From assembly GCF_048403405.1 (NCBI RefSeq), contig NZ_CP183132.1: 6,055 bases of DNA. One strand, 5' to 3'. Shown piece after piece: positions 1 to 6,055 of this stretch. Under the pieces are notes generated by a model, which was not told where the DNA came from, ran no database searches, and saw only the letters and a list, made by a program, of their open reading frames with translations. Position numbers and translations under genes: made by a program. The DNA is from Escherichia coli. Lineage in GTDB: Bacteria; Pseudomonadota; Gammaproteobacteria; Enterobacterales; Enterobacteriaceae. How positions within the stretch are numbered: position 1 is the stretch's first letter; each line of letters starts with the position of its first letter.

Positions 1-2
1 TC

Positions 3-31
3 TTGAGATCCTTTTTTTCTGCGCGTAATCT
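3..31 (+). promoter_or_regulatory. RNA II (primer RNA) promoter: -35 TTGAGA (3-8), 17-bp spacer, -10 TAATCT (26-31)
   Basis: Seen in sequence: hexamers with 17-bp spacing about 7 nt upstream of the predicted RNA II 5' end. Established knowledge: the region matches, from memory, the RNA II promoter of ColE1/pMB1 replicons (pBR322 ...ttgagatcctttttttctgcgcgtaatctgctgc...). Confidence 0.6.
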
Positions 32-37
32 GCTGCC

Positions 38-144
38 TGTAAACGAAAAAACCGCCTTGCAGGGCGGTTTGATCGAAGGTTAAGTCAGCTTGCAGACTGC
101 TTAACCAGGTAACTGTCTTATGCGAGACGAGTCACCAAAATTGT
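38..144 (-). ncRNA. RNAI: RNA I antisense copy-number control RNA (about 107 nt)
   Basis: Minus-strand transcript complementary to the 5' end of RNA II. Its 3' end coincides with a GC-rich hairpin (ccgccctgcaaggcgg) followed by a T-run on the minus strand at about 46-70, i.e. an intrinsic terminator. Boundaries by analogy with the 108-nt pBR322 RNA I. Confidence 0.7.
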
Positions 145-628
145 TCTTCTAGTGTAGCCGCACTCCGGCAGCCACTTCAAGTACTCTCTAAATATCTCGC
201 ACATGACTTTTACCAATGGCTGCTGCCAGTGGCGCTTTGTGGTGTCTTTTCCGGGTTGGACCCAAGAGAACAGTTACCGGAGAAGGCGCAGCAGTCGGGC
301 TGAACGGGGGGTTCCTGCATACAGCCCAGCCCGGAGCGAACTGCCTAAGTCGCCCCGAGATACCAGAAGACGTGAGCTATGAGAAAGCGCCACGTGTCCC
401 GTAAGGGAGAAAGGCGGAAAAGGTATCCGGTAATCGATATGGCGGGAACGTGGGGGCGCAGGAGGGAGCGATTCACCGGAAACGGTGATGATCTTTAAGC
501 CACGTCGGGTTTCGCCACCGCTGGCGGATTTCATGGTTGAGCCGCAAGGCTCCCACAGATGCACCGAAAAAGTGTCTGTTTTGTGAAGTCCGTCAGGGGG
601 GCGGAGCCTATGGAAAAAGCGCCTCCGG
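39..628 (+). ncRNA. RNAII: RNA II pre-primer transcript of a ColE1-type origin; 3' end (RNA-DNA transition) approximate
   Basis: Start placed at G39 by analogy with the pBR322 RNA II start (GCAAAC; here GTAAAC). The downstream sequence is collinear with the ColE1/pMB1 primer region, including ...gtcaggggggcggagcctatggaaaaa... just before the expected transition point. End not determined precisely. Confidence 0.65.
151..180 (-). promoter_or_regulatory. RNA I promoter: -35 TTGAAG (complement of 175-180), 17-bp spacer, -10 TACACT (complement of 151-156)
   Basis: Seen in sequence on the minus strand; the spacing and hexamers resemble the pBR322 RNA I promoter as I recall it. Confidence 0.55.
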
Positions 629-650
629 CGCGGCCTTTCCCGGGGTTTCG
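585..650 (+). other. oriV: approximate RNA II to DNA transition region of the ColE1-type origin
   Basis: Lies about 550-600 nt downstream of the RNA II start and contains ...ctatggaaaaagcgcctccggcgcggcctttcc..., homologous to the pBR322 origin segment (...tatggaaaaacgccagcaacgcggcc...). No Rep protein gene is present, consistent with host Pol I / RNase H priming. Confidence 0.55.
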
Positions 651-849
651 TTTTTTGCGTACATGTTCTTTCCTGGTTTATCCCCGGGTTCTGTGGATAA
701 CAGGGTTAGCGTTTTTGAGAAAGGAGAGTCCGCTCGCCGCAGCCGAACGACCGAGCGTAGCGAGTCAGTGAGCGAGGAAGCGGAAGAGCGCCTGAACTGG
801 CATTTTCTCCTTACGCATCTGTGCGGCATTTCACACCGGACATGGCGCA

Positions 850-915
850 CTTTTCATACAATCCGCACTGATGCCGAATGGTTAAGCCAGTATACACTCC
901 GCTATCGCTACGTGA
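850..915 (-). other. bom/oriT-like region (origin of transfer with the relaxase nic site), approximate
   Basis: The sequence ...tgatgccgaatggttaagccagtatacactccgctatcgctacgtgactgg... is near-identical to the pBR322 bom region (...tgatgccgcatagttaagccagtatacactcc...) read on the opposite strand. It sits between oriV and rom as in pMB1/ColE1. Exact nic position not determined. Confidence 0.45.
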
Positions 916-1035
916 CTGGGTCAGGGCTTCGCCCCGACACCCCAAAGGTCAACGGCCTGACGCGCCCTGGCGGGCTTGTCTGCTCCCGGCATCCGCTCAC
1001 AGACAAGCTGTGACCGTCTCCGGGAGCTGCATGTG

Positions 1036-1227
1036 TCAGCGGTTTTCACCGTCATCCCCGAAGCGTGCGAGGCAACTGCGGTAAAGCTCATCGGCGTGGT
1101 CGTGAAGCGATTCACAGATGTCTGCCTGTTCATCCGCGTCCAGTTCGTTGAGCTTCTCCAGCAGCGTTAATGTCTGGCCTCTGATGAAGCGGGCCATGTT
1201 AAGGGCGGTTTTTTCCTGTTTGGTCAC
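1036..1227 (-). CDS. rom: Rom/Rop, the RNA I - RNA II pairing modulator (63 aa, GTG start)
   Basis: The minus-strand ORF 1036-1299 contains VTKQEKTALNMARFIRGQTLTLLEKLNELDADEQADICESLHDHADELYRSCLARFGDDGENR, near-identical to pBR322 Rop as I recall it (MTKQEKTALNMARFIRSQ...GDDGENL). The true start is the GTG at complement 1225-1227, as in pBR322, not the upstream ATG of the 87-aa ORF. Confidence 0.9.
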   Translation of the reverse strand: MTKQEKTALNMARFIRGQTLTLLEKLNELDADEQADICESLHDHADELYRSCLARFGDDGENR

Positions 1228-1258
1228 TGATGCCTCCGTGTAAGGGGGGGTTCTGTTC

Positions 1259-1615
1259 ATGGGGGTAATGATACCGATGAAACGCGAGAGGATGCTCACG
1301 ATACGGGTTACTGATGATGAACATGCCCGGTTACTGGAACGCTGTGAGGGTAAACAACTGGCGGTATGGATGCGGCGGGTCTGCCTGGGTGAGCCGGTTG
1401 CCCGTTCCGGGAAGCTGCCGACACTGGCACCGCCGTTACTGCGTCAGCTGGCCGCCATCGGGAATAACCTTAACCAGACAGCGAGGAAGGTGAACAGCGG
1501 GCAGTGGTCTTCCGGTGACCGGGTTCAGGTGGTGGCCGCACTGATGGCCATCGGGGATGAGCTGCGCCGGCTGCGTCTGGCGGTCAGGGAACAGGGGGCG
1601 CGGGATGATAGTTAA
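1259..1615 (+). CDS. mbeC: MbeC/MobC-type relaxosome accessory protein
   Basis: The translation (...MLTIRVTDDEHARLLERCEGKQLAVWMRRVCLGEPVARSGKLPTLAPPLLRQLAAIGNNLNQTARKVNSGQW...) matches ColE1-family MbeC; the truncated homologous stretch follows rop in pBR322. Strong SD (aaggggggg, about 8 nt) precedes ATG 1259; alternative in-frame starts at 1277 and 1292 would give 112 or 107 aa. The stop overlaps the mbeA start. Confidence 0.75.
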   Translation: MGVMIPMKRERMLTIRVTDDEHARLLERCEGKQLAVWMRRVCLGEPVARSGKLPTLAPPLLRQLAAIGNNLNQTARKVNSGQWSSGDRVQVVAALMAIGDELRRLRLAVREQGARDDS

Positions 1616-3170
1616 GTTTCATGCCAGGGGAAAAGGTGGTGGCAGTGGTCCGGTTGATTACCTGCTGGGAAGGGAGCGTAACCGGGAAGGGGCAACGGTG
1701 CTTCAGGGGAATCCGGAAGAGGTCCGGGAACTCATCGATGCCACGCCATTTGCGAAGAAATACACGTCAGGTGTTCTGTCGTTCGCGGAGAAGGAGCTGC
1801 CGCCTGGAGGGCGTGAAAAAGTGATGGCGAGCTTTGAGCGTGTACTGATGCCCGGTCTCGAGAAAAATCAGTACAGCATCCTGTGGGTGGAGCACCAGGA
1901 CAAGGGACGGCTTGAGCTGAATTTTGTCATTCCGAACATGGAGCTACAGACCGGAAAACGCCTCCAGCCGTACTACGACCGGGCAGACAGGCCGAGAATT
2001 GATGCCTGGCAGACGCTGGTGAATCACCATTACGGTCTGCATGACCCCAACGCCCCGGAGAACCGCCGGACGCTGACCCTTCCTGATAACCTGCCGGAAA
2101 CGAAACAGGCGCTTGCTGAGGGCGTCACACGCGGGATAGACGCGCTTTACCATGCCGGAGAGATAAAAGGCCGTCAGGATGTGATTCAGGCGCTCACAGA
2201 GGCGGGGCTTGAAGTGGTCAGGGTGACGCGAAGCAGTATCAGCATTGCAGACCCGAACGGCGGGAGGAATATCAGACTGAAAGGAGCGTTTTATGAGCAA
2301 TCTTTTACAGACGGGCGCGGAGTTCGAGAAAAAGCTGAAAGAGAGAGCCGAATCTACAGAGAAAATGCTGAACGACGAGTTCAGGAAGCTCGAAGAATCT
2401 GTAAACAGGGAACTGACCTCAAACGAATCTTTAATCAGGAACGCTATCAACGACCATACAACAGCCCTGAAAGAACTGCTGGAGAGGTATCAGAAAACGA
2501 CCGTCGATACGATGGACGCGCACTGGAAAACCGTACTGAAAATGAGCGTGAAACGCTGGCTGTGGCTGATTATCGTCTCAGTACTGATGTTTGCCACGAC
2601 CGGGAGTCTGCTGTGGTACCAGGGCATGAAGATAAACGCGAATATGAATATTCTCCGCGAGCAGAAAGAGAGTCTGGAGAAGCTGAACGCGAAGACATGG
2701 GGCGTGCGTTATCACGAGGACAGCAACGGACGTTTTCTGGTGTTGCCGAAGGGGATGAAAGCCGAAACGAACTGGACGAAGGACAACGGCAAACTGAACG
2801 CAGTGAGACTGGTGCAGGAGTGACAGAGCATGACGGAGCTGGAAAGACATTTGCTGAACGCATTAGAGCAACTGCAACAGGACTATATGCAGCGGCTGAA
2901 CGAATGGGAGAACGCCTTCGTGGAATTGCAGAAAATGTTTTCGCTTACGCAACGGGACAACGCGATGCTGAACGGGCGAGTCATGCAGTTGAGTCAGCAG
3001 GTGCAGCACTTGAGCGAGCGGACAGAACGCTTGAGCCAGTTATACAGCGAGAACAGGAGATAAGGGATGAACGGCTGATGCAGGAACGCGAACATGAGTT
3101 ATCTCTGGAGCGGGAGCGTCAGCCGGAAATCCAGGAGCGGACACTGGATGGCCCTTCGCTGGGATGGTGA
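1605..3170 (+). CDS. mbeA: MbeA relaxase (MOB-HEN family), 521 aa
   Basis: N-terminus MIVKFHARGKGGGSGPVDYLLG... contains the catalytic Tyr19 and the HEN motif (H97, E104, N106 in ...WVEHQDKGRLELNFVIPN...) described for ColE1 MbeA. SD agggggcg lies 5-6 nt upstream of ATG 1605. The longer 537-aa ORF from 1557 is an upstream extension running through the end of mbeC. Confidence 0.9.
   Translation: MIVKFHARGKGGGSGPVDYLLGRERNREGATVLQGNPEEVRELIDATPFAKKYTSGVLSFAEKELPPGGREKVMASFERVLMPGLEKNQYSILWVEHQDKGRLELNFVIPNMELQTGKRLQPYYDRADRPRIDAWQTLVNHHYGLHDPNAPENRRTLTLPDNLPETKQALAEGVTRGIDALYHAGEIKGRQDVIQALTEAGLEVVRVTRSSISIADPNGGRNIRLKGAFYEQSFTDGRGVREKAERESRIYRENAERRVQEARRICKQGTDLKRIFNQERYQRPYNSPERTAGEVSENDRRYDGRALENRTENERETLAVADYRLSTDVCHDRESAVVPGHEDKREYEYSPRAERESGEAEREDMGRALSRGQQRTFSGVAEGDESRNELDEGQRQTERSETGAGVTEHDGAGKTFAERIRATATGLYAAAERMGERLRGIAENVFAYATGQRDAERASHAVESAGAALERADRTLEPVIQREQEIRDERLMQEREHELSLERERQPEIQERTLDGPSLGW
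2293..2823 (+). CDS. mbeB: MbeB mobilization protein (176 aa), nested in a different frame inside mbeA
   Basis: ORF with a good SD (aaggag, 6 nt upstream of ATG 2293) and one hydrophobic segment (WLWLIIVSVLMFATTGSLLWY). The nested position inside mbeA matches the ColE1 mbe operon. Confidence 0.8.
   Translation: MSNLLQTGAEFEKKLKERAESTEKMLNDEFRKLEESVNRELTSNESLIRNAINDHTTALKELLERYQKTTVDTMDAHWKTVLKMSVKRWLWLIIVSVLMFATTGSLLWYQGMKINANMNILREQKESLEKLNAKTWGVRYHEDSNGRFLVLPKGMKAETNWTKDNGKLNAVRLVQE
2830..3063 (+). CDS. mbeD: MbeD mobilization/entry-exclusion protein (77 aa), nested inside the 3' part of mbeA
   Basis: ORF immediately after mbeB, with SD aggag about 9 nt upstream of ATG 2830; its position matches mbeD of the ColE1 family. 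Product inferred from gene order and overlap, not from recalled protein sequence. Confidence 0.65.
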   Translation: MTELERHLLNALEQLQQDYMQRLNEWENAFVELQKMFSLTQRDNAMLNGRVMQLSQQVQHLSERTERLSQLYSENRR

Positions 3171-3232
3171 AACCATGAAAAATGACGTGTTCAGTGGATT
3201 AAGGCGGGCTAATGTGGCCTGTAGCATCTGGT

Positions 3233-3250
3233 TGCATAGGTATTCATGCG
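3233..3250. promoter_or_regulatory. Putative ArgR box within the cer accessory region
   Basis: TGCATAGGTATTCATG resembles the ARG-box consensus (TNTGAAT-4W-ATTCANA) with mismatches and lies about 100 bp upstream of the XerC arm, the expected position in cer-type sites. Confidence 0.4.
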
Positions 3251-3346
3251 GTTAAAATTTATCAGGTGCGATCGCGGCAGTTTTTCGGGTGGTTTGTTGC
3301 CATTTTTACCTGTCTGCTGCCGTGATCGCACCGAACGCGTTTTGGC

Positions 3347-3375
3347 GGTGCGTACAATGCGACGTTATGGTAAAT
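3347..3375 (+). other. XerC/XerD recombination core: GGTGCGTACAA (XerC arm) - TGCGACG (central region) - TTATGGTAAAT (XerD arm)
   Basis: Seen in sequence. Both 11-bp arms are identical to those I recall for ColE1 cer; the central region is different and 7 bp long here. Confidence 0.75.
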
Positions 3376-3465
3376 GGAGCGGATTTTCAGGAAGGAGTGA
3401 TACTAACAACTCGAACACTGTGCAAATAATGATTTTTTTAAAATATCGGTAACGATAATAAATTA

Positions 3466-3503
3466 TTTCGTTTTACGCCGGTAATAAATATAATGTAGTT
3501 TCA
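3466..3503 (+). promoter_or_regulatory. Candidate sigma70 promoter for the cargo operon (-10 TATAAT at 3489-3494; weak -35; AT-rich upstream)
   Basis: A perfect TATAAT hexamer lies about 50 nt upstream of ATG 3544 in an AT-rich tract (taataaattatttcgttttacgccggtaataaatataatg). No good -35 at 17-bp spacing; a second TATATA at 3505-3510 is also possible. Confidence 0.3.
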
Positions 3504-3543
3504 GTATATAAAAAAATATATGAGGTGTCTTGTGGGAGCTTTC

Positions 3544-4596
3544 ATGAATCTTCAACAACGTATAAATAAACTACCACAATTATCATCCAGTTTTTCATTT
3601 GGAAAAGATATTGATAATATTCATTCATTTATCTTTAACGAAACTTCTAAAGATAAAATTGAAGATTTACTAAGAAAATGGGTGTCAGGCAATCAGCCCT
3701 GTGTATTTGGTAAATTGGCAAGCAAGAAAATTAAAGGGCTTGATTTCCATTTATCTATTGTAAATAGCCCCCAACTATATAATGATGATGGTCATTTGTT
3801 TGATTTTTTGCGTAATGAAAGAGTTCGTTTTAAAGAACGCGCAAGAAGAGGAGAGGTCAGTGCGCATCTCATTTATTTTATTCATCCACAACTTGCCTTT
3901 GCTCGTCCATCAGAAGAGTTAGTGGACATACAAAAATATATTTGTTCGCTGCATATGCCAGAGTGCTATCCAATAAAAGAGGATGTTATTTATACTGAAA
4001 GCGTACCATTTCAGGATAAAGATGGGCTAAAAATATATAAGGCTGGTGTTAATGTTTTTTACTCTTCTGCTCATAGAACAAGAAATCATGATAGAAGAAT
4101 ACCAGGGGGAATACTTATTTCTGTAAATGCCCCGGGGCATTTTATGAGGCTGGCGATAGAAAAAGGTTTCTATAAAGATCAAGAACAAGCGTTAGCGGAT
4201 ATTCGTAACATGACTATTCAGTCTGTTGGTAAGGGTGGGTATTCACATCCGGAAGGGATTTCTACAACATGGCATTCAGAATCTAATTTGGATCGTTTTG
4301 GATGCCCAGTGCACACCGGTAATAGTTCTTATTACAGCGGTTTTTATCATACTGATGTATTAATTCCAGGAGAATTAACTAAGGATGAAAGATTGCTCCA
4401 TGAAATAGAAAATAGTGATCCAATGATCTTCAACTGGAATGTATTGTTTTATGTTTCATTAGAAGAGTTTCCTATAGATGATCCTTATTATGGAGAGTTT
4501 ATTGGTATTCCTGTAGATGATGCATCTATGTTTTTTAACTCCTTTCAACCAAGGAAATTTGAAAACAAACCCCTTTATGAGAAAGAGGATGATTAA
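3544..4596 (+). CDS. Hypothetical soluble protein, 350 aa, family not recognised (first gene of the AT-rich cargo operon)
   Basis: Long ORF (track 3520-4596) in AT-rich DNA. ATG 3544 is preferred over ATG 3520 because of the SD gggag 5 nt upstream. No signal peptide or hydrophobic helices evident. Conserved-looking segments include NAPGHFMRLAIEKGFY and DRFGCPVHTGNSSYYSGFYHTDVLIPGE. Confidence 0.75.
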   Translation: MNLQQRINKLPQLSSSFSFGKDIDNIHSFIFNETSKDKIEDLLRKWVSGNQPCVFGKLASKKIKGLDFHLSIVNSPQLYNDDGHLFDFLRNERVRFKERARRGEVSAHLIYFIHPQLAFARPSEELVDIQKYICSLHMPECYPIKEDVIYTESVPFQDKDGLKIYKAGVNVFYSSAHRTRNHDRRIPGGILISVNAPGHFMRLAIEKGFYKDQEQALADIRNMTIQSVGKGGYSHPEGISTTWHSESNLDRFGCPVHTGNSSYYSGFYHTDVLIPGELTKDERLLHEIENSDPMIFNWNVLFYVSLEEFPIDDPYYGEFIGIPVDDASMFFNSFQPRKFENKPLYEKEDD

Positions 4597-4597
4597 T

Positions 4598-5464
4598 ATG
4601 ATTAAAGGAATGCTTTTTGCTTTTTTAGCAGCGTTCTCATGGGGGGCAGCTATCGTAATGAGCAAAAAAGGAGTTGAAGAACTAGATGCCGGAGGGGTGT
4701 TTTTCTGGCAGATTTGTAGTGCAGTAATACTATCTTGGATAGTTCTTTTTATAAAAAGAAAAAAACTCCCATTAAACTCAAAAGCGATACTTGCTTATGC
4801 GACAGGCGTTTTTGAACCATTCTTAGCGTATACTTTTACACTCTACGGACTTTATTTTATTTCAGCAGGAAGCGCATCAATTATTTTTTCACTTGAATCA
4901 GTGTTTATATTGGTGTTGTCTGTTCTTATTTGCTCAGTTAAAATTAATTCCCCGCAATATTTTATATTGTTCCTTATAGGTGCAATTGTTGGCAGTATTT
5001 TGGTAGCCTTGCCAGACATCAGTAATGGATCGAATAATATTGTTGGATATTGTCTTGTTGTTGCCGGTGTGTTATCGGCAGCATTTTATGTTGTTATATC
5101 GTCTCGCCTTATTAAATCGTTTGAGCCTATCACATTATTGAGCGGACAGTTGACATTCTCCCTTATACTGTCATCGCTCTTTATTTTTATATCTAAATCA
5201 TCAATTTATCTTCCGTTGGAATCCGTGATTATTGTTTTTTCATCTGGAATATTACAATATTTTTTAGCTTTTTGTTTTTACTTGAACTCCTTGCGTTGGC
5301 TCCCAGTTCATTTGGCAGGGATAATGTTGTACTTTATTCCGCTAGTTGCATTATTTTTGTCATGGTTGTTTTTGGATGAACAATTCACATTCTTACAGGG
5401 GGTAGGATTTATTGTAACTGTGCTAAGTGTATATTTTCTTAACAGAAAATACTCAGAGGAGTAA
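4598..5464 (+). CDS. DMT-superfamily (EamA-like) integral membrane transporter, 288 aa, about 10 predicted TM helices
   Basis: About ten hydrophobic segments of 18-23 residues in a 5+5 arrangement, with an N-terminal LFAFLAAFSWGAAIVMSKKG typical of EamA-domain proteins. Start ATG 4598 has SD aagagga 8 nt upstream and lies 2 nt after the stop of the upstream gene; the track ORF from 4517 is an N-terminal over-extension. Confidence 0.8.
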   Translation: MIKGMLFAFLAAFSWGAAIVMSKKGVEELDAGGVFFWQICSAVILSWIVLFIKRKKLPLNSKAILAYATGVFEPFLAYTFTLYGLYFISAGSASIIFSLESVFILVLSVLICSVKINSPQYFILFLIGAIVGSILVALPDISNGSNNIVGYCLVVAGVLSAAFYVVISSRLIKSFEPITLLSGQLTFSLILSSLFIFISKSSIYLPLESVIIVFSSGILQYFLAFCFYLNSLRWLPVHLAGIMLYFIPLVALFLSWLFLDEQFTFLQGVGFIVTVLSVYFLNRKYSEE

Positions 5465-5633
5465 CATTCTGTTCAGGATTGCCCCCCGGCCTCCATCGAT
5501 ACCGTGCCAAATGCACGTAAAAAACGGGAGCGTTTCTGGTGTCGGAATGTAACCAAGGGGGTCAGAGGCGCGCTAAAACGCTCTCAGGGGAGTCAAATAG
5601 AGACGTTTGTAACAAAAAGATCAAAGGATCCTC

Positions 5634-5662
5634 TTGAGATCCTTTTTTTCTGCGCGTAATCT
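5634..5662 (+). promoter_or_regulatory. RNA II promoter, second copy of 3-31 in the terminal overlap
   Basis: Identical sequence at offset 5631. This copy shows the true context on the circle: the promoter lies about 170 bp downstream of the cargo transporter gene. Confidence 0.6.
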
Positions 5663-5668
5663 GCTGCC

Positions 5669-5775
5669 TGTAAACGAAAAAACCGCCTTGCAGGGCGGTT
5701 TGATCGAAGGTTAAGTCAGCTTGCAGACTGCTTAACCAGGTAACTGTCTTATGCGAGACGAGTCACCAAAATTGT
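5669..5775 (-). ncRNA. RNAI: RNA I, second copy of 38-144 in the terminal overlap
   Basis: Identical sequence at offset 5631. Confidence 0.7.
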
Positions 5776-6055
5776 TCTTCTAGTGTAGCCGCACTCCGGC
5801 AGCCACTTCAAGTACTCTCTAAATATCTCGCACATGACTTTTACCAATGGCTGCTGCCAGTGGCGCTTTGTGGTGTCTTTTCCGGGTTGGACCCAAGAGA
5901 ACAGTTACCGGAGAAGGCGCAGCAGTCGGGCTGAACGGGGGGTTCCTGCATACAGCCCAGCCCGGAGCGAACTGCCTAAGTCGCCCCGAGATACCAGAAG
6001 ACGTGAGCTATGAGAAAGCGCCACGTGTCCCGTAAGGGAGAAAGGCGGAAAAGGT
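5670..6055 (+). ncRNA. RNAII: RNA II, 5' part, second copy of 39-424 truncated by the window end
   Basis: Identical sequence at offset 5631. Confidence 0.65.

Follow-up and report, generated by a model that had tools for sequence, protein, structure and literature searches.

A sequence that ends with the bases with which it begins raises the question of whether a replicon carries a genuine duplication or whether a circle has been written past its own start. The question is posed here by a 6,055-nucleotide stretch of Escherichia coli DNA (contig NZ_CP183132.1 of assembly GCF_048403405.1; the whole stretch is called the window below), in which the repeated bases hold replication control elements of a ColE1-type plasmid. 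The window is very probably one full 5,631-bp circular ColE1-type mobilizable plasmid of the pJJ1886_3 family, a family widespread in E. coli, Salmonella, and Klebsiella, followed by its own first 424 bases a second time. According to this explanation, the molecule would have one RNA II promoter, one RNA I, one origin, rop, an mbeABCD/bom region, a cer-like site, and a pair of cargo genes. The circle would have been opened at an arbitrary point, 2 nt before the RNA II −35 box, and it is proposed that the redundancy arose when the circle was assembled or exported, the overlap having been left untrimmed.

The terminal repeat and the length of the unit

The initial annotation described an exact 424-bp direct repeat at the two window ends, with the RNA II promoter and RNA I inside it, and explained it by a circularly redundant plasmid of 5631 bp. 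The repeat is as described. Positions 1–424 are identical to positions 5632–6055 in 424 of 424 bases, and mismatches between the copies, which the annotation had named as a finding that would speak against a circle, amount to 0 over the 424 bp. The self-comparison that it had proposed gave the same picture, with the window shifted against itself matching solely at a period of 5631, the identity at the other offsets between 5000 and 6040 being at most 38%. A repeat search of the window returned one direct-repeat family only, with a spacing of 5631. The origin of a 424-bp exact match by chance in 6 kb is impossible.

The position of the repeat is as informative as its identity. It reaches the first and the last base of the window, and its length is therefore set by the window cut and not by divergence. 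The first copy (1–424) starts 2 nt upstream of the RNA II −35 box, within a conserved hairpin (5623–5645). The second copy (5632–6055), in which the start of the circle is written again, has an upstream context that is contiguous in the public record NC_022662.1, and it breaks off inside RNA II at base 6055, where the end of the repeat (424 and 6055, respectively) coincides with no feature. Both cut points look arbitrary, as for a circle opened anywhere and written past its start. The start of the window holds only the right arm of the hairpin; a hairpin halved at one end, together with a window end that falls at no feature, is what would be expected from an arbitrary cut of a circle.

Both regulatory elements said to lie within the repeat were found there, in each copy. 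The RNA II promoter, on the plus strand, occupies 3–31 and 5634–5662, with the −35 box at 3–8 and 5634–5639 and the −10 box at 26–31 and 5657–5662. RNA I, on the minus strand, occupies 43–143 and 5674–5774. The predicted RNA-to-DNA switch, i.e., the origin motif CCTATGGAAAAA, occurs once in the window, at 607–618, outside the repeat. The claim that the elements of the origin are single-copy holds in this sense, with one origin motif, one promoter, and one RNA I per circle.

The same observations bear on a second explanation, in which the repeat would be a genuine partial tandem duplication. The replicon would then be at least ~6,055 bp long, with the RNA II promoter and the RNA I gene each present twice beside one origin, and its copy-number control would be altered. 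Nothing speaks for this beyond the general limits of what a sequence alone can tell. Both boundaries of the duplication would have to match the window ends exactly, which would be a strong coincidence, and an exact direct repeat of 424 bp in a high-copy plasmid would be expected to be lost soon by recombination. No public record of the plasmid with a length of 6,055 bp or with a partial duplication was found, the only longer record being a full dimer. A partial duplication is thus considered very improbable.

Identity with pJJ1886_3 and continuity across the junction

Further support for a circle of 5,631 bp comes from independent records. Window positions 1–5631 match many closed circular records of 5,631 bp over their full length at 100.0% identity (rounded), and the hosts of these records are E. 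coli, Salmonella enterica, Klebsiella pneumoniae, and K. oxytoca. At least 80% of the unit is held by at least 119 PLSDB records and by 108 of 5,426 complete E. coli genomes. An index of public assemblies lists the exact cargo protein in 18,478 blocks, most of them on contigs of 5–10 kb. The reference record, pJJ1886_3 (NC_022662.1) of the E. coli ST131 strain JJ1886, is annotated as circular and has 5,631 bp. It was presented as a 5.6-kb MOBP5/ColE1-like plasmid (PMC4270462), and plasmids of 5,631 bp were reported in further clinical isolates (PMC11507042).

The window unit and pJJ1886_3 agree in length, gene order, and sequence, the unit corresponding to the reverse-complemented record after rotation. 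The differences are one single-nucleotide polymorphism, another start point and strand, and the 424 redundant bases at the end of the window. The sole base difference lies at window position 660, with T here and C in both records that were compared base by base, NC_022662.1 and NZ_CP059951.1. This position is non-coding and lies ~40 nt downstream of the predicted origin. The second of these records, NZ_CP059951.1 (p4 of strain 268.2), scored one bit higher and was expected to be identical to the window; it also carries the polymorphism at 660.

The junction 5631|5632, at which the unit meets its rewritten start, can be followed in the same records. The 400 bp centred on it are uninterrupted inside both NC_022662.1 and NZ_CP059951.1, and it is contiguous in 10 of 10 larger public contigs with the cargo genes (L010–L019). 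It is also colinear with ColE1, since window positions 5590–6055 align to ColE1 560–1010. The proposed 5631-bp plasmid is in this way supported, the unit being a rotation of closed circular 5,631-bp records and the junction internal to them. Circular contigs with untrimmed overlap share these properties with the window, namely an exact repeat at both ends and a unit equal to independently closed circles; here the repeat touches both ends, and unit and junction are both confirmed by independent circular records. The plasmid is already known, having been deposited more than a hundred times, and its terminal repeat reflects the way in which the sequence was written down rather than any new biology.

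Dimers, concatemers, and cointegrates

Two points weigh against reading the window as a single monomeric circle. Sequence by itself cannot tell a monomer circle from a piece of a multimer, both of which would give a 5,631-bp unit, and an overlap length of 424 bp is not known to indicate any particular technical origin. The window might then be a piece of a head-to-tail dimer or multimer, or of a concatemeric assembly, with the second copy continuing past the window end. This is the only rival explanation that carries weight, although it is improbable, and it would leave the unit and the gene order unchanged. It is consistent with the fact that the repeat ends only where the window itself ends, so that its true extent may be greater. 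ColE1-type plasmids form dimers via homologous recombination. Longer arrangements also exist among public records: NZ_CP183122.1 (L004) is an 11,254-bp record labelled "circular" with two copies of the unit, in which the mbeA, hypothetical, and DMT genes are frameshifted, and a 22,487-bp contig (L013; GCA_040188985.1) repeats the unit. However, the plasmid has a cer-like Xer site (3173–3375, plus strand) with 88% identity to ColE1 cer, by which dimers should be resolved in xer+ hosts. More than 100 independent closed assemblies give the 5,631-bp monomer, and a window of exactly one unit and a short overlap is seen more typically with circular contigs. As for the two longer records themselves, the dimer NZ_CP183122.1 and the concatemer L013 are probably doublings made in long-read assembly.

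The remaining explanation takes the window as an excerpt from a larger cointegrate, formed by integration of the small plasmid into an IncF plasmid or a chromosome. Such arrangements are found in public data. Contigs L010–L012 and L014–L019 carry the unit, in part or whole, inside replicons of 20–115 kb, and in L014–L017 and L019 the match starts exactly at the cer core (unit position 3347). The unit in those contigs has, however, foreign flanks (e.g., IncFII repA, colicin, and microcin B17 genes), whereas the window holds only the unit and its own first 424 bases. Of the explanations considered, an origin of the window from a cointegrate is given the least credence and is regarded as practically excluded.

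The larger contigs are of some interest in themselves. The five in which the match opens at the first base of the cer core (L014–L017 and L019; locus ~5804) are IncFII-type plasmids and one contig with chromosome-like flanks. In contigs with IncFII repA genes, and with microcin B17 or Tn3-family genes in the neighbourhood, the match that opens at unit position 3347 crosses the junction and extends to unit position ~500. L017 contains the complete unit, opened at cer and bordered on either side by cer-like sequence. Such cer-bounded matches in larger contigs suggest Xer-mediated cointegration, with which their boundaries would fit. A different arrangement was observed in L010–L012 and L018 (IncFII/colicin contigs, ~8090–9096), where unit positions 1–372, with the RNA II promoter and RNA I, adjoin an inverted version of this region that is 81% identical. 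This version comes from another ColE1-like element, and the two replication-control regions stand head to head.

With the single 5,631-bp circle retained as the preferred explanation, the consequence for annotation is simple. There is one replicon with a true size of 5,631 bp, and RNA I, the RNA II promoter, and the open reading frames within 5632–6055 should not be counted twice.

Replication control region

Judged by alignment and motifs, the window represents a classical ColE1-type replicon that also has the mbe module and cer of ColE1, in agreement with this class in all features that could be tested. Compared with ColE1 (NC_001371.1), it shares the RNA II/RNA I/rop control, the promoter hexamers, the origin, bom, mbeABCD, and cer, at 82–88% identity. 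It differs in that the colicin E1, immunity, lysis, and exclusion genes of ColE1 are replaced here by a cargo pair of low guanine-plus-cytosine (GC) content. The positions given for the RNA II and RNA I promoters are motif positions.

The RNA II promoter consists of a −35 box TTGAGA and a −10 box TAATCT separated by 17 nt and is identical to that of ColE1; the assignment of these hexamers follows what is established for ColE1/pMB1. From here the RNA II pre-primer is predicted to run over ~580 nt on the plus strand (39–618), colinear with ColE1, and to end at the putative RNase H/DNA-start site. The A-run of CCTATGGAAAAA lies 587 nt downstream of the −10 box, compared with 564 nt in ColE1. The RNA II of ColE1 has 555 nt. 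Relative to ColE1, an insertion of ~41 nt was observed shortly upstream of the origin (window 500–600), and 16 nt are lacking further upstream (window ~200–215).

RNA I, the antisense copy-number regulator, was recognized by the Rfam model RF00106 with 56.5 bits against a gathering score of 47 (E 1.1e-8), over the full model (1–102). Its minimum free energy fold has a single-stranded 5′ tail followed by three stem-loops (−41.9 kcal/mol, z −6.3). As in ColE1-type plasmids, an antisense RNA is thereby present that is ~100 nt long, has three stem-loops, and overlaps RNA II at its 5′ end. The block that contains its promoter, on the minus strand at 5777–5811 and again at 146–180, is conserved with ColE1; the boxes TTGAAG (−35) and TACACT (−10) are presumably those of RNA I, by analogy to ColE1/pMB1. 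The sequences of the RNA I stem-loops mostly differ from those of ColE1, which suggests that the plasmid may belong to a separate incompatibility type.

The protein component of the control is also that of the ColE1 type. A Rop/Rom protein of 63 amino acids (aa) is encoded by rop/rom on the minus strand at 1036–1227, with a GTG start (Pfam PF01815, E 1.4e-36; WP_000165975.1). No Rep domain was found in the eight scanned open reading frames, which cover all annotated genes, shorter frames lying outside the scan.

Mobilization genes and the cer-like site

Downstream of the origin lies a block homologous to bom/oriT (866–923, no strand assigned), near-identical to ColE1 in the alignment. It is followed on the plus strand by mbeC (1292–1615), which encodes a MobC-family relaxosome protein (Pfam PF05713 and PF21983; RefSeq annotation), and by the gene of the MOBP5/HEN relaxase, mbeA (1605–3170; NCBIfam NF047848, 900 bits). 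The genes mbeB (2293–2823) and mbeD (2830–3063) are nested in mbeA in another frame (Pfam PF04837/PF04899 for mbeB and mbeD; MbeB_N, MbeD_MobD). Both lie wholly within mbeA, as in ColE1. RefSeq annotations of identical copies of the plasmid list either mbeA or mbeB/mbeD. The presence of MbeA together with MbeB, MbeC, MbeD, and the bom-homologous block would place the predicted mobilization system in the MOBP5/HEN group.

The cer-like multimer-resolution site introduced above has an Xer core at 3347–3375, which reads GGTGCGTACAA-TGCGACG-TTATGGTAAAT. Both arms are the XerC/XerD arms of ColE1, whereas the central region (TGCGACG) has 7 bp compared with 8 bp in ColE1. An ungapped search of the window with the 30-bp cer core of ColE1, allowing up to 3 mismatches, gave no match. 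The site was missed because its central region is 1 bp shorter, and it came to light on inspection of the sequence and by alignment. With its XerC/XerD arms, 7-bp centre, and an accessory region highly similar to that of ColE1, it is a putative site of the cer type, for which a centre of 6–8 bp and ~180 bp of accessory sequence ahead of it are characteristic.

The junction hairpin and the position of the cargo genes

On the circle, the junction brings the cargo genes next to the replication control region. The initial annotation held that the cargo operon is adjacent to the RNA II promoter, and the coordinates bear this out, as the DMT gene ends at 5464, 169 bp before the −35 box (5634). Cargo pair and promoter are co-oriented, and only a hairpin with a T-run separates them. 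The hairpin, on the plus strand at 5623–5645, is formed by AAAGGATC...GATCCTTT and followed by the T-run (AAAGGATCCTCTTGAGATCCTTT TTTT); it is a terminator-like match that is kept in ColE1. The junction 5631|5632 falls within this element, which also overlaps the −35 box of RNA II. For read-through into the replication primer it is relevant that the cargo pair immediately precedes the RNA II promoter and shares its orientation. The hairpin may block such read-through from the cargo pair, and it is proposed that it would in this way insulate RNA II from cargo transcription.

The cargo pair

The cargo region has a GC content of 29–39%, compared with ~55–60% in the backbone. It consists of two genes on the plus strand. 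The first (3544–4596) encodes a 350-aa protein of an unnamed family, annotated as hypothetical (WP_001053268.1). The second (4598–5464) starts 1 nt past the stop of the first and encodes a DMT/EamA transporter of 288 aa (Pfam PF00892, E 6.8e-44; RefSeq annotation).

The 350-aa protein gave no match in Pfam, NCBIfam, PADLOC, or the sequences of the PDB, and a literature search by its accession returned nothing. An exact 47-mer from the cargo gene had no match in a collection of viral contigs. In a profile search of 5.8 billion proteins, the matches were confined to the protein's own closed family, with no annotated remote relative, and the family profile gave only chance matches to antibody chains when compared with the PDB. 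The family comprises ~131 clusters, all of them "hypothetical", down to ~30% identity, with members in Pseudomonas, Rhodopseudomonas, Burkholderia, Algicola, Morganella, Steroidobacteraceae, and some actinomycetes. In the other genomic contexts examined, an EamA transporter adjoins the gene of the family in 5 of 5, and a divergent MarR regulator adjoins it in 3 of 5. The invariant residues of the family include P52-C53, H177, H182-D183-R184-R185, W243-H244, Y264, Y268, and D271, among others.

The AlphaFold2 model of the protein is confident (pLDDT 86, pTM 0.89). A Foldseek comparison of the model with the PDB gave no significant match, the weak matches being to the heme domains of nitric-oxide synthase (E ~0.04). 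A structure with which the protein was compared is AglA (PDB 9ub3), which is grouped with the YqcI/YcgG thiolate-heme guanidine N-hydroxylases (PMC12866846) and differs from the 350-aa protein by its low identity of 8% and by ~110 extra residues. At the level of sequence, a Pfam scan of 35 members of the family with E values up to 1 returned no match, the YqcI_YcgG family included, and AglA is absent from the matches of the family profile against PDB sequences. It is tentatively proposed that the cargo pair encodes an unnamed thiolate-heme oxygenase with an AglA-like fold, the substrate or product of which would be moved by the DMT/EamA transporter. The proposal is doubtful, and "thiolate-heme oxygenase plus exporter" should be taken as a lead and not as a finding.

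Within the window, only the cargo pair is left unexplained, and it is this pair, not the repeat, that merits further work. If the proposed function is correct, a metabolic role would fall to a "cryptic" plasmid that is present at high copy number in pandemic E. coli lineages.
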